From a virus (Duplodnaviria > Caudoviricetes), in IMG/VR virus record IMGVR_UViG_3300031867_000034, positions 1 to 64,000 of that record: 64,000 nt of DNA; one strand, given 5' to 3'. A program made the position numbers and the translations under genes. How positions within the stretch are numbered: position 1 is the first letter of the stretch; each line of letters opens with the position of its first letter. This document shows positions 1 through 36,585 of this stretch, in pieces. The notes below the pieces were generated by a model that searched no databases, was not told the DNA's origin, and worked only from the letters and a program-made list of their open reading frames with translations.

Positions 1-127
1 AGTTTAGACGAGGGGAATGAAAGATGGGAATGTCGATTGAGAAAGCAATAGAGATAATAAACCATTATTTAGATTATCCCAAAGAAGAAGTAAGAAAAGC
101 CTTATTAGTAGCAATAGAAATCATGCG
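1..127 (+). repeat. Exact 127-bp direct repeat, copy 1
   Basis: Base-by-base identical to 36347-36473; first mismatch at 128 (g) vs 36474 (c). Confidence 0.97.
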
Positions 128-260
128 GAAGTATCAGAAGATTGAACAGATATACAACTCATGGAGAACAGGCGATTATAAAGGTTCAAAAGAGTGTATG
201 GAAGATATGGGAGAGGTATTAGAAGATGGGAATAACACAACTAACCCAAAAAATAATTGA
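24..260 (+). CDS. Small mosaic-array hypothetical protein
   Basis: RBS GAGGGG; contains MRKYQKI and EVLEDGN linker motifs shared with ORFs at 36039 and 36370. Confidence 0.7.
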   Translation: MGMSIEKAIEIINHYLDYPKEEVRKALLVAIEIMRKYQKIEQIYNSWRTGDYKGSKECMEDMGEVLEDGNNTTNPKNN

Positions 261-27278: not shown

Positions 27279-28148
27279 ATAATCAACAAATGATTTAGGA
27301 GGGCAACAAGATGAAGAGATATAGAGTAGAATTTGAATTTATGTATAGAGATCCGGAAATATCTGATGGCAAGTACCACATAGATTACTTGGATAACAAT
27401 GGTGAGGGATTCACATTACAAGAGGCGGAGGATGTTGCCAAGTTTGTGAGAGCAAGTGAAATTCTTTATATAAAGTGGGCTGAAGTGGTAGAAATGGAGG
27501 GATAACATGTTTTGGATATACGATACTAAGGAAAAGAGAACAGCAACAAGAACCGGATGGAGCATCAGATGCAATGCCGAAAGAGTATGCCAGGCAATGA
27601 ACATTAAGCATGAAGGCATTGAAGAAGTTGATAAGCCGGCAAATGAAAGAAGATTCATAATCAAGGAGGCATGAAATGAAAGTGGCTATTGTAAATCTTC
27701 ATGGAATAAAAGATGGCGATAAGGCATATTATAGGAAACTTGGGCTTTGCTATGATTTTGTATCTGATAAAACTATTTCCGGAACGGAATTGACCGAAGC
27801 GGAAGCCATTAATGTTTTGAATCATAAAGACTATTACTTGAAAATGTATGGTGCTGAAAAAATGGTGATTGAATCATAAGGAGGCATGAACATGGTAAGA
27901 ATGTATGGCAAATATAAGTGTTGTGAATGTGGTGAAATATTCCGGGAAAGTGAAATAAAGGTGGTGGAAGAGAACCGGGGAGAGTTTTGGGGATTCCCTT
28001 GCACCGAAAGAATGCATTATAGCCCTTGTTGCATGGCAAGTTTTGAAGAGGCTTATGAAGATGAAGAAGAATTGATTGATGAATAAATTTAAGGTTGTAC
28101 ATCATATCAATCAATAGTATAATAGGTGATAGGAAGGAGGCGAAACAC

Positions 28149-28337
28149 ATGGAATTAAAACAGTATTTAGAAGAACATGGAGTGAATCAGCAAGCACTTG
28201 CAAGGGAATTAAACATTTCCTACCAGGCTTTATATGTTAAGCTGAAGGGCAATGGCAATTTCTCAATCAAGCAAGCCTTGAAGATTAAAGATTTTCTTAG
28301 GCTAACATGGGATGAATTTGTTAAGTTTTTTGGTTGA
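28149..28337 (+). CDS. Cro/XRE-like HTH protein
   Basis: QQALARELNISYQALYVKLKG..FS HTH motif. Confidence 0.8.
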   Translation: MELKQYLEEHGVNQQALARELNISYQALYVKLKGNGNFSIKQALKIKDFLRLTWDEFVKFFG

Positions 28338-30428: not shown

Positions 30429-30827
30429 ATGCATATTACAATTCCACTTGCGCCGATTAGCAAAAAGAATCACTCTCGCATTATTTGGAATAAGGCAACA
30501 AAAAAGCCAATGATTATTCCATCAAAGCAATATAAGGATTATGAAAAGGCATGTGCGGAATATATACCAAATGTGCCTTTTAATACATATGATTGCCCGG
30601 TTAATGTATGTTGTATATTTTATATGCCAACACGGCGCAAAGTTGATATTTCCAACTTATTAAATGCTATTCTTGATTTATTAGTACATTATGGTGTAAT
30701 ATTGGATGATAACAGAAATATAGTTTATTCGGTTGATGGTTCAAGGGTTTTGTATGACAAAAACTTTCCGAGAACCGAAATTGAAATAACAGAAATCGAG
30801 GATGCGGAAATATGGGTAAAAAAATAG
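30429..30827 (+). CDS. rusA: RusA-family Holliday junction resolvase
   Basis: RKVDISNL..AILDLLV...ILDDN motif. Confidence 0.88.
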   Translation: MHITIPLAPISKKNHSRIIWNKATKKPMIIPSKQYKDYEKACAEYIPNVPFNTYDCPVNVCCIFYMPTRRKVDISNLLNAILDLLVHYGVILDDNRNIVYSVDGSRVLYDKNFPRTEIEITEIEDAEIWVKK

Positions 30828-31477
30828 ACCTAACAGGGCAAAGATTTGGTAGGCTTGTTGTTATTGAAGAATCAGAACTTCGTAATAGTAGCGGTAATGT
30901 AAAGTGGAAATGTAAATGTGATTGTGGGAATATTACTTTTTCAAATGGGTATGATTTAAGAAAAGGTGTTGCGCAATCATGCGGATGTTATAATAGAGAT
31001 TTGGTAAAAAAAGATAATCCAAAATATAAAAGACCATTATATTATATTTATCATTCAATGAAATGTAGGTGTTACAATCCAAATGATAGAGCATTCCATA
31101 ATTATGGAGCAAGGGGAATAAAAATTAGTGATAAGTGGAATACATATGAAAAGTTTGAAGAATGGGCATTAGACAAAGGATATAAAAAAGGCTTATGGCT
31201 AGATAGAATTAATAACGATTTGGATTATTCGCCGGATAATTGTAGATGGGCAACACCTAAAGAACAGCAAAACAACAAGCGAACTAATCATTATATAACA
31301 ATTAACAACGATACAAAAACGATACAAGAATGGGCTGAAATATCCGGAATAAAACCCATGACAATAACAAGAAGAATTGAATTGGGATGGAAAAATGAAG
31401 ATTTATTAAAACCGGTAAATGCCAGGTATAGCCATCCTTTAGAAATAAAAAGAGCAATGAAGAGTTGTAAATTATAA
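30812..31477 (+). CDS. HNH homing endonuclease
   Basis: DLTGQRFGRLVV, CKCDCG, SCGC, YGARGI, LDRINND..YSPDNCRW motifs. Confidence 0.88.
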   Translation: MGKKIDLTGQRFGRLVVIEESELRNSSGNVKWKCKCDCGNITFSNGYDLRKGVAQSCGCYNRDLVKKDNPKYKRPLYYIYHSMKCRCYNPNDRAFHNYGARGIKISDKWNTYEKFEEWALDKGYKKGLWLDRINNDLDYSPDNCRWATPKEQQNNKRTNHYITINNDTKTIQEWAEISGIKPMTITRRIELGWKNEDLLKPVNARYSHPLEIKRAMKSCKL

Positions 31478-31652
31478 ACTAATCATTTATAATGTGATAT
31501 GTGATTGGGTAAATCATGTGCATATGCCTTGTTTGGTACTCGCACTACCGGCAAGGAGTAGAGAACTAAACAAGGCGATTAAAAGCCACTAGGATGCAAT
31601 GTGCGAGATTGCATCTTGGTGGTTTTTTATTACCAGTTGGAGAAATGGGGAA

Positions 31653-32438
31653 ATGGCAATTTATAGAAATGTGCAAATGGCTTTTTGGAATGATACAAAA
31701 ATTGCTGATGATTTCACAGCAAAAGAAAAATATTTGTATTTGTATTTGCTAACCAATCCACATTCAAATCTATGTGGATGCTATGAAATAAGCATTAGCC
31801 AAATGGCATTGGAAACAGCAATAGAGAAAAAAGAGATTCCGGAACTTATTTCCAGGTTACAAGATGCGCACAAAGTAATTCTTTTTTCTAAAGATACAAA
31901 AGAGGTTCTTTTATTAAATCATCATAAGTACAATTGGACTTCTTCAGAGAAATTTAGAAAACCATTAGAAAAAGAAATCAATAGTGTAAAAAATGAAGGT
32001 TTTAAGGCTTATCTATTGGATTTATTTAATGGTATTGATACTGTATCTATACCGTATCAATATGGTAGCGATACAACTGTTTCTGTTTCTGATACTGTTA
32101 CTGATACTGTTTCTGATACTGAAAAAGAGAAAAAGCCAAAAAAGCAAACTGAACCTAAAGAATCTTATGGCGCACTTGGAAATGTAAAATTGACGATTAA
32201 GCAATATGAAAAATTGATTGCTGATTATGGTTATGAACTTACTGAAAAAGCCATTGTTTTTTTGGATGGTTATATAGCGGATAAAAAATACAAATCATCG
32301 GATAACAACCAAGCATTGCGCCGGTGGGTGTTTGATGCTGTTAAGGAGCAAGAACAGAAAAGAGCCAGGATTGCCGGAAATAATAAGCAATCAAATTATG
32401 ATGATGCCATGCAAAGATTTTTGGCAAAAGGAGATTAA
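31653..32438 (+). CDS. Replication initiator (replisome organiser-like)
   Basis: F..D.K....KYLYLYLLTN N-terminal wHTH; internal GATACTGT iterons. Confidence 0.8.
   Translation: MAIYRNVQMAFWNDTKIADDFTAKEKYLYLYLLTNPHSNLCGCYEISISQMALETAIEKKEIPELISRLQDAHKVILFSKDTKEVLLLNHHKYNWTSSEKFRKPLEKEINSVKNEGFKAYLLDLFNGIDTVSIPYQYGSDTTVSVSDTVTDTVSDTEKEKKPKKQTEPKESYGALGNVKLTIKQYEKLIADYGYELTEKAIVFLDGYIADKKYKSSDNNQALRRWVFDAVKEQEQKRARIAGNNKQSNYDDAMQRFLAKGD
32037..32122 (+). repeat. Candidate origin iterons (GATACTGT, 12-bp spacing)
   Basis: Copies at 32037, 32091, 32103 and 32115, plus a variant at 32070. Confidence 0.65.
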
Positions 32439-32440
32439 GG

Positions 32441-33004
32441 ATGCAAAGAGAAGAGATTGCAAGTGTGCTTAATGTAATCCGTGATACATATGATGTGAAC
32501 TTTACGGAACTAACCATGGAAGTTTGGTTTAATGCTCTAAAAGAATTTGATTTTGAGGATGTAAAAAAGGCAACCTTCCAATATATCCGCACCGGAAAGT
32601 TTAAGCCAAAACCGGCAGATATTATAGAGTTGATTGTTGAGAATAAAGCCCCACAGATGCCGGAAGAAATGAGCGCACAAGAGGCATGGTCTTTAGTATA
32701 TAAGGCAATATGCAATAGTGCATATAATTCCATCCAAGAGTATGAGAAGTTGCCGGAAATGGCAAAAAAAGCCATTGGAAGTGCTGATAATCTAAGGAGC
32801 CATGCAATTGATGCGGATTTCAATATGGGTGTGGCACAAAGCCAATTTATAAAGGCGTACAACACTTTATTGGAGCGCAAGAAAAATGATTATGCCATGA
32901 GGCTTGAAGCTGTTAAGCGTGGTGATTTGTCTATTGAGCAATTAACCCAGGGTGTTATTGAGAAAATGGAAAATAAATTATTGTTAGAAGAAAATATAAA
33001 ATAA
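32441..33004 (+). CDS. Helicase loader/inhibitor-like protein
   Basis: W..AL.......V..A...YI..GKF.PKPADI motif; follows the initiator. Confidence 0.65.
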   Translation: MQREEIASVLNVIRDTYDVNFTELTMEVWFNALKEFDFEDVKKATFQYIRTGKFKPKPADIIELIVENKAPQMPEEMSAQEAWSLVYKAICNSAYNSIQEYEKLPEMAKKAIGSADNLRSHAIDADFNMGVAQSQFIKAYNTLLERKKNDYAMRLEAVKRGDLSIEQLTQGVIEKMENKLLLEENIK

Positions 33005-33007
33005 GTG

Positions 33008-33036
33008 TTGACAATCCTATAAATAAAGTTTATTAT
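33008..33036 (+). promoter_or_regulatory. Early sigma-A promoter P2
   Basis: TTGACA-17-TATTAT; shares TTGACAATCCTATAAA with P1. Confidence 0.8.
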
Positions 33037-35738: not shown

Positions 35739-36038
35739 ATATGGCAACATATGAAATCACAGCAGAATTGAATCTGAAAAAGATTATTGCAGAATCAAGG
35801 GAAGTTGCACAAGCCTTAAATGAGTTTGCGGATAATCTTGAACGGATTGAAAAGAAGTATGCAAAGCCACAGGAAAGTGAGGCAGACAATGGGAATAACA
35901 ATCAACATAACTGAGGGCATCAACGACTATGAATTTTATAATGTGCCGAAAAAAGTAGCAAAAGCAATAATTACACTTCTACATGAGTGTGAGAAGGAAG
36001 ATAGCACTATTGTTTCAGCTATCAGTGAGAGGTAGAAG

Positions 36039-36281
36039 ATGAAAATGACGATTGAAGAAAGTCTTGAATGGCTTATATCAAGAAAAGAACACTATGAAAT
36101 GGATGATAATTGTCAAGAATTAGCGAAAGCCTTAGATATAGCTATAGATACCATGCGTAAGTATCAGAAGATAAGAGAAATAGCTTTTCCATTACAGTTT
36201 TGTTCAACAGACAAACTTGAGCATGAAGCTATTATGAAAATATGTGAGGTATTAGAAGATGGGAATAGTAATTGCACATAG
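36039..36281 (+). CDS. Mosaic-array hypothetical protein
   Basis: MRKYQKI and EVLEDGN linkers. Confidence 0.7.
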   Translation: MKMTIEESLEWLISRKEHYEMDDNCQELAKALDIAIDTMRKYQKIREIAFPLQFCSTDKLEHEAIMKICEVLEDGNSNCT

Positions 36282-36346
36282 GCGTTGTCCTAAATGTGGT
36301 TGTAAATGTTTTAGAAATATGAATAGGTGTTGGCATTGTGGATATA

Positions 36347-36473
36347 AGTTTAGACGAGGGGAATGAAAGATGGGAATGTCGATTGAGAAAGCAATAGAGA
36401 TAATAAACCATTATTTAGATTATCCCAAAGAAGAAGTAAGAAAAGCCTTATTAGTAGCAATAGAAATCATGCG
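36347..36473 (+). repeat. Exact 127-bp direct repeat, copy 2
   Basis: Identical to 1-127. Confidence 0.97.
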
Positions 36474-36585
36474 CAAGTATCAGAAGATAGTCGATATAGT
36501 TTCCTTGAATGATGAAGAATTTAAACAATGTGGGTTAAAGGAATTAAAGGAAATATTGGAGGTTATAGCTGATGGTAGGAATTAA
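36370..36585 (+). CDS. Mosaic-array protein sharing its N-terminal half with ORF 24-260
   Basis: Identical up to MRKYQKI, then unrelated. Confidence 0.7.
   Translation: MGMSIEKAIEIINHYLDYPKEEVRKALLVAIEIMRKYQKIVDIVSLNDEEFKQCGLKELKEILEVIADGRN

Follow-up and report, generated by a model that had tools for sequence, protein, structure and literature searches.

A structured RNA element with complementary, covarying hairpin loops at the head of a phage replication module

The window, by which we mean the whole 64,000-nucleotide stretch of viral DNA analysed here, contains a gap of 175 nt between an HNH endonuclease gene (30812-31477) and the gene for a DnaD-like replisome organizer (31653-32438, + strand, with a GGAG ribosome-binding site at 31639-31642 and ATG at 31653). 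This gap houses most of a compact transcription unit (31465-31631) in which a promoter is followed by a 5' hairpin, a bistable segment and, lastly, a 20-bp terminator ending in a U-tract. The promoter (31465-31493, +) is of the sigma-70 type and near-consensus, TTGTAA-17-TATAAT, matching at 10/12 positions in a promoter scan (-35 box 31465-31470, 17-nt spacer, -10 box 31488-31493), and the stop codon of the HNH gene (31475-31477) lies within its spacer. About 6 nt past the -10 box is a small hairpin, hairpin A (31499-31519, +; ATGTGATT, loop GGGTA, AATCATGT). An earlier note on this DNA had drawn the element at 31526-31627, which is too narrow, omitting both the promoter with which the unit starts at 31465 and this 5' hairpin.

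Downstream of hairpin A, segment X (31526-31538, +; GCCTTGTTTGGTA) is the 5' strand common to two mutually exclusive helices. It is followed by loop 1 (31539-31545, +; CTCGCAC, with a YUNR-like CUCG start), which is the 7-nt loop of hairpin 1; by X'prox (31546-31556, +; TACCGGCAAGG), the 3' strand of that hairpin; by a variable spacer (31557-31564, +); and by X'dist (31565-31576, +; ACTAAACAAGGC), the distal partner of X, which together with X forms the basal stem of a long hairpin, B. The terminator hairpin (31581-31627, +) has its 5' strand at 31581-31600, loop 2 (GTGCGAG) at 31601-31607 and its 3' strand at 31608-31627. Its 20 continuous pairs, G-U included, were correctly described in the earlier note as a long terminator-like stem, and they end in the U-tract TTTTTTATT (31623-31631, +); a G+C-containing stem with a U-run directly after it is what defines an intrinsic terminator. 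A simple terminator scan did not list the site at 31581-31627, probably because the A-U extension used by the scan consumes the T-run. We infer the ends of a ~130-nt RNA from these features, with hairpin A probably forming the 5' end and the U-tract the presumed 3' end. The ribosome-binding site of the organizer gene begins ~10 nt past the U-tract. A search of the virus record for further copies showed the element to be single-copy.

X pairs either with X'prox, giving hairpin 1 with loop 1 displayed, or with X'dist, giving the long hairpin in which loop 1 is masked with the help of the variable spacer (GAG/CUC and AGU/ACU pairs). In the window hairpin 1 reads CCUUGUU-(bulge U)-GGUA / UACC-GGCAAGG, with a 7-nt loop and -11.3 kcal/mol; the hairpin and loop proposed in the earlier note are real, but are better drawn in this way, as 11 pairs with a U bulge. 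The 12-bp pairing that had been proposed to exclude hairpin 1, GCCTTGTTTGGT (31526-31537) with ACTAAACAAGGC (31565-31576), is likewise present; it covaries among relatives, and the minimum-energy fold of the + strand uses this alternative stem and lacks hairpin 1. Over 31478-31650 the + strand folds to -69 kcal/mol (z = -7.9 versus shuffles), compared with z = -4.8 for the - strand.

Loops 1 and 2 are exact reverse complements on the same strand, ~55-62 nt apart, at the positions first assigned to them (31539-31545 and 31601-31607). A perfect 7-mer complement of the terminator loop within 87 nt upstream arises by chance in ~0.001 of shuffles, a single-window value that is low yet not negligible over an inspected 64 kb. 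On this match alone, the locus might be nothing other than a promoter and an ordinary terminator of the upstream operon, which the terminator does in fact end, with loops that happen to be complementary; homologues decide this question.

Pattern scans of viral and metagenome contigs, look-ups of organizer homologues, and profile and covariance-model searches together yielded 18 distinct homologues, all from contigs of rumen type; the sample names, too, suggest rumen phages. All 18 have the same order of parts: promoter, hairpin A, X, loop 1, X'prox, X'dist, terminator, U-tract. The promoter is TTGnnn-17-TAnnnT with a spacer of exactly 17 nt in 18/18, irrespective of the upstream gene, and a small hairpin A occupies the same place in every homologue while varying in sequence. 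GCCTTG...CAAGGC and a long terminator ending in GGTGGTTTTTT occur in every member, with GGTGGTTTTTT, the GGTGG at the base of the terminator stem and the T-run nearly invariant. The terminator itself is present in 18/18 as an 18-23 bp stem of -21 to -29 kcal/mol followed by at least six U. In the closest relative (L002) the organizer protein is 96% identical to that of the window and the adjacent rep DNA 91%, the element 75%; a 186-aa gene separates element from rep, and there is no HNH gene upstream.

The usual site of the element is past a set of recombination genes (Sak, Gp157, RusA or another resolvase) and before the replication module, which it heads in most homologues. To that extent its placement ahead of an initiator, as first proposed, holds; in many relatives, however, another gene intervenes between element and initiator gene, and the downstream gene is not always an initiator. 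Downstream variants comprise the DnaD-like organizer, a DUF559-like gene plus organizer, a RepA_N-like initiator (a label read from the N-terminal sequence, with no family search behind it) and small ORFs. The intervening gene seen in many relatives (L002:1719-2279, L129:3486-4004, L131:3436-3984 and L132:3402-3977) is absent from the window; it encodes a protein of 175-190 aa with weak matches to DUF559/MTES_1575 (nuclease fold) and a conserved N-terminal 'LDIFLKLP..Q..IW.DL'. The element is absent from phages whose organizer proteins are 47-60% identical (L280-L285), so the initiator family does not require it.

One contig, L124, carries two copies of the element 5.8 kb apart (L124:6804-6969 and L124:961-1118, both on the - strand), the second preceding the gene for a 76-aa protein with nothing beyond a LexA DNA-binding domain. 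Their loop pairs, CUCGACC/GGUCGAG and CCGUUAC/GUAACGG, are the most different of all. Two copies occur in just one of four related records, and the orthogonality of two copies is known from a single genome.

The HNH gene of the window (30812-31477) is an insertion, in that RusA directly precedes the element in most relatives. In L135 a different, I-HmuI-like HNH gene occupies the same site, and the presence of different HNH genes at one junction marks it as a recurrent landing site for free-standing homing endonuclease genes. The virus record from which the window is taken is 79.8 kb long and holds copies of both its ends near 35.9-36.5 kb at 99-100% identity (window 1-142 and 35889-36488; record end 79671-79797, outside the window). 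Relatives of its first part are contigs of 31-38 kb. The record has the appearance of two related phage genomes in head-to-tail order, perhaps made chimeric in assembly, and the element belongs to the first phage unit. An exact 12-nt copy of X (GCCTTGTTTGGT) lies at record positions 77165-77176, outside the window, in a small ORF of the second phage unit, against a chance expectation of ~0.01 for such a match in the record; it may be fortuitous, or may serve in trans as a target for the X'dist strand when this is exposed.

Base-pair changes were counted on an alignment (A9) whose model-based fit used hairpin 1 and the terminator and left the loop-loop pairs out; MAFFT alignments (A3, A4, A7) misplaced the L002-type loops, for which reason A9 was used, and a further model (R1) served for searching only and contributed no pair counts. 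In the loop-loop helix 97% of cells are paired, and five of its seven pairs have changed on both sides, none on one side only. Hairpin 1 is paired in 93% of cells (5/12 pairs changed on both sides), the terminator in 85% (11/16 stem pairs changed on both sides), and the B stem, X with X'dist, in 99.5% (5/12, through changes in L135, L138, L140 and L124b). The covariation score of the whole structure is 0.505 versus 0.223 for shuffled controls, with 0/500 reaching the observed value, and slid controls score 0.07-0.10. Covariation is thus seen in hairpin 1, in the long stem that excludes it and between the two loops, which bears out the earlier suggestion of an RNA conformational switch with loop-loop pairing. 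The most divergent member, L135, has changed X together with both its partners. That X is otherwise nearly invariant is explained by its having two pairing partners.

In each of the 18 members the terminator loop is matched by a perfect 7-10 nt complement whose position is the same throughout, 12-15 nt into the region of X, and this complementarity is kept through six loop types: CUCGCAC/GUGCGAG, CUAGCCC/GGGCUAG, AUAGCCC/GGGCUAU, CUCGACC/GGUCGAG, CCGUUAC/GUAACGG, and AUCGCCC/GGGCGAa, of which the last pairs at 6/7 positions in register and has its perfect 7-mer complement one base out of register. Covariation of the two loops across related phages had been named in the earlier note as a check, and it came out clearly in favor of pairing. 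Complementarity in 18/18 through six loop sequences, with both-sided changes at five positions, is far beyond chance and refutes the reading of an ordinary terminator with fortuitously matching loops, to which we now give practically no credence. One loop type can be found with several versions of the terminator upper stem and of hairpin A, and vice versa, while L129 and L130 share flanks and differ in both loops; this mosaic of loop types and flanks indicates that loop matching is kept by selection, and not by inheritance alone.

Changes in the loop-loop helix are always from C-G to A-U and never pass through a wobble pair (A/C in loop 1, U/G in loop 2), with the consequence that non-cognate loops give A-G or C-U mismatches and no wobble; cognate loop duplexes come to -8 to -11 kcal/mol, most non-cognate ones being weaker than -5 kcal/mol. 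Loop 1 has U2 in 17/18 and G4 in 18/18, and the YUNR-like start that results is a feature of fast-pairing recognition loops (PMC4485353). The absence of wobble is also what two copies of one DNA site would produce, and the element adjoins replication genes. It might accordingly be supposed to act as DNA, whether as a replication origin, a single-strand initiation signal or a set of protein-binding inverted repeats, with the loops as opposed copies of one recognition sequence. We regard this as improbable. G-U pairs occur in all three stems, where they would be A-C mismatches on the other strand, and their abundance marks the sense strand as the folding strand, in keeping with the much better fold of the + strand than of the - strand. 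The conserved promoter and U-tract are not expected of a DNA site, the same element stands beside unrelated initiators, contrary to what initiator-specific origin repeats would predict, and the two 7-bp sites sit at the centres of two different palindromes.

Predicted energies are compatible with two states of the RNA. Hairpin 1 can form in every member, with 11-13 bp, a 7-nt loop (8 nt in L124b) and -11 to -16 kcal/mol, and the long-hairpin fold, in which loop 1 is buried in an apical stem, is 5-17 kcal/mol more stable in every member. The loop-loop helix is predicted to contribute -8 to -16 kcal/mol, roughly offsetting this advantage, so that hairpin 1 plus kiss and the long hairpin would be close in energy. 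Since hairpin 1 is transcribed first, loop 1 should be exposed at least transiently; loop 2 is always displayed on the terminator in the predicted folds, which consist of serial hairpins.

An early operon begins near 28095 with a second near-consensus promoter (TTGTAC-17-TATAAT, read equivalently with a 16-nt spacer by the scan) and, as its first gene, one for a 72-aa Cro/CI-type HTH protein (28095-28337); it reaches the terminator of the element with no earlier terminator in between. From the U-tract to the ribosome-binding site of the organizer there is no other promoter, nor room for one, which makes the terminator an unavoidable gate for the replication genes. The genes for organizer and helicase loader span 31653-33004, and the next good promoter is at 33008: directly past the helicase-loader gene, at 33008-33036, is the best promoter match of the region (TTGACA-17-TATTAT, 11/12), which implies that only these two replication genes depend on read-through.

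An early operon (Cro-like HTH, Sak, Gp157, RusA) that meets a terminator with the replication genes behind it recalls protein-dependent antitermination, as at lambda nutR-tR1 ahead of O and P, or at PR'-qut-tR'. A phage protein would then bind the conserved X/X' hairpin or promoter-proximal RNA, with loop pairing serving only to stabilise the scaffold, and the sequence conservation of X and X'dist, far above what base pairing needs, could reflect such binding. We found no candidate antiterminator, however, and the two pairing partners of X account for its near-invariance as well. A nut-type site could do without a promoter, whereas one is present in 18/18 members, and diversification of the loops into orthogonal types is unexpected for a scaffold contact. 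On balance antitermination by a protein seems unlikely.

Plasmid replication control offers the most obvious precedents, and the earlier note had drawn its analogy from there. In IncI-alpha/IncB plasmids, repZ is controlled by a pseudoknot and the Inc antisense RNA, the hairpin loop pairing just upstream of the rep ribosome-binding site, with a leader peptide coupled to rep. In pT181, pIP501 and pAMbeta1, countertranscript-driven attenuation relies on mutually exclusive terminator and antiterminator helices, the terminator lying upstream of rep. The element resembles these antisense systems in having a structured leader before an initiator gene, a U-turn-type recognition loop and long-range loop pairing, and resembles pT181/pIP501 in its intrinsic terminator upstream of rep, found in 18/18 members. 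The analogy with IncI/IncB holds for this principle only. Loop 1 of the element pairs with the loop at the tip of the terminator, ~32 nt before the GGAG, and, across the element and 150 nt downstream in the 18 members, no antisense promoter with at least 10/12 consensus matches is conserved; a conserved antisense promoter was rejected on this ground. A conserved leader-peptide frame seems unlikely: the window has a 32-codon frame at 31494-31592, and small indels (1-3 nt) affect the loops and spacers of homologues.

Unlike pT181/pIP501, the element also has no terminator/antiterminator alternative. No helix was found that competes with the terminator: in truncated transcripts lacking its 3' strand, the 5' strand is left mostly unpaired or is paired weakly and without conservation, and an antiterminator helix was rejected on this ground. 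The terminator stem can stay closed while the loops kiss. These findings take away the most direct link between the switch and attenuation, and with neither a conserved antisense promoter nor an antiterminator the element is of neither the IncI/IncB nor the pT181/pIP501 type.

ColE1 RNA I and RNA II kiss through fully complementary 7-nt loops, loop changes alter their specificity, and the timing of co-transcriptional folding decides the outcome. The hairpin loops of the element are likewise 7 nt and fully complementary. In ColE1, though, the complementarity is automatic, arising from opposite strands of the same DNA, whereas both loops of the element are on one strand, and their complementarity has to be kept by selection; nor is the element known to act as a primer.

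Closer in logic are the P4 CI RNA and the P1/P7 c4 RNA (Rfam C4), which are sense-encoded leader immunity RNAs with a constitutive promoter and boxes complementary to the same transcript. The P4 CI RNA controls the replication operon, and its complementary boxes covary between heteroimmune relatives and define specificity. In the P4 and P1/P7 RNAs the boxes lie near a ribosome-binding site or a Rho-dependent site, and the RNA ends by RNase P processing. The element would similarly be a sense-strand leader RNA with covarying self-complementary sites. It differs in that pairing joins two hairpin loops, of which one caps the terminator, that an intrinsic terminator would end the RNA, and that a bistable X/X' switch is added; the Rfam C4 model has no match in 30500-32500 at E up to 10. 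A further parallel is IsrK of the Gifsy-1 prophage, where a single promoter gives rise both to a short terminated RNA and to a longer mRNA by read-through, and the short form acts in trans on the long one via alternative structures; IsrK activates translation of a downstream ORF (PMC4825925). It has no sequence or structural relation to the element, the likeness lying in one promoter with a short and a long product. The P4 and P1/P7 immunity RNAs and the IsrK isoforms are the closest analogues in logic.

The packaging RNA of the phi29 family also has two mutually complementary loops that are kept as sequences diverge, and through them it associates with itself hand in hand (PMC4201828). The element shares the two complementary loops and their retention across relatives. 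It differs in pairing over 7 bp versus ~4 bp, in lacking a three-way junction, in having the terminator loop as one of its loops and the other conditionally masked, and in belonging to a replisome-organizer phage and not to a phi29-type genome. This comparison nonetheless raises the possibility of a stand-alone small RNA, whose complementary loops would produce dimers or rings, or which would be a compact decoy, sponge or anti-defence RNA, its position at the replication genes being incidental. A consensus promoter running into a very strong terminator ~130 nt on is how an sRNA gene is built, such an RNA would be stabilised by its 5' hairpin and its 3' terminator, and two complementary loops on one RNA are what define pRNA self-association (PMC4201828). 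The missing antiterminator and the second copy ahead of a non-replication gene point the same way. Against this, the replication genes have no promoter of their own past the terminator and are gated by it, the element heads replication modules of unrelated initiator types, the Rfam pRNA model has no match at the locus and no three-way junction is present, and a bistable masking of loop 1 is hard to square with a purely structural RNA. A stand-alone RNA is thus possible, and we would put its chances at around half those of the regulatory reading that follows.

We hypothesize, with a probability of roughly 0.5, that the element is a leader or small RNA that gates replication-gene expression through loop-loop recognition. 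The main product of the strong promoter would be a stable terminated RNA of ~130 nt, and read-through transcripts would be the mRNA of the replication genes. In the K fold, hairpin 1 (X with X'prox) would form first in transcription and show its 7-nt U-turn-type loop; in the B fold, the long hairpin (X with X'dist) would mask it. The abundant terminated RNA would show loop 2 and could bind loop 1 either of its own molecule or of leaders still being transcribed. Such recognition would set the state of the leader, and through it the amount of replication-gene expression, with the loop sequences acting as specificity types between related phages. We infer that the RNA is produced and that the kiss forms, acting in cis or in trans, with read-through, translation or stability as the output. 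The occurrence of the element at the head of modules with different initiator types (DnaD-like, RepA_N-like) favors this riboregulator reading; the copy that precedes a LexA-type regulator, and downstream genes that are not always initiators, speak against it, as do the phages with 47-60% identical initiators that lack the element and the missing helix by which the switch might compete with the terminator. Attenuation of the initiator for copy-number control, as the earlier note had it, is a reasonable conjecture for the locus.

It is tempting to go further and picture a 'sense countertranscript', in which the terminated leader RNA would be its own regulator. Accumulating with phage genome copies, it would catch with its terminator loop the U-turn loop of nascent leaders before masking by the long hairpin, and so set replication-gene expression; the loops would then sort co-infecting rumen phages into incompatibility or immunity types and would prevent cross-talk where one genome has two copies. 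We offer this version as speculation, doubtful as it stands. No targets of loop 1 or loop 2 were found elsewhere in the genome.

Database and literature searches returned no description of such an element. An Rfam 15 scan of 30500-32500 (E up to 10) gave only spurious matches, the best of them miRNA-type hairpin models at 22 bits versus gathering thresholds of 58-89. The GenBank phage collection contains no near relative, the HNH gene alone matching, and distantly. A search of viral contigs with the hairpin A 15-mer returned at least 117 chance matches, only the L002 contig being real among the matches listed, and a three-block pattern run against genome contigs gave, among the matches listed, only L259 (the contig of L129) as real, the others being chance matches in GC-rich genomes, so that cultured genomes may contain further prophage copies. 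Literature searches found no description of the motif. Several further identities were set aside because their defining features are lacking: a riboswitch (the conserved bases are in stems, not junctions), a retron ncRNA (no reverse transcriptase), a type I or type III toxin-antitoxin RNA (no ORF, no repeats), and a tRNA-like anticodon loop (position 37 is a non-purine in most loop types).

The element is an undescribed structured RNA class that puts known principles into a new arrangement. Loop-loop recognition and bistable leaders are at the core of plasmid copy-number control and of P4/P1 RNA immunity. In the known systems complementarity is either automatic, through an antisense gene, or resides in linear boxes; here it is between two hairpin loops of the same strand and is held by selection. 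Even if its function should prove to be a different one, this would be a well-supported new class of structured RNA, absent from Rfam. If the RNA does regulate the replication module, it would give phages with Firmicutes-like hosts in the gut and rumen a new and highly compact means of controlling dosage or immunity, and its loop types would be a natural set of orthogonal kissing pairs.
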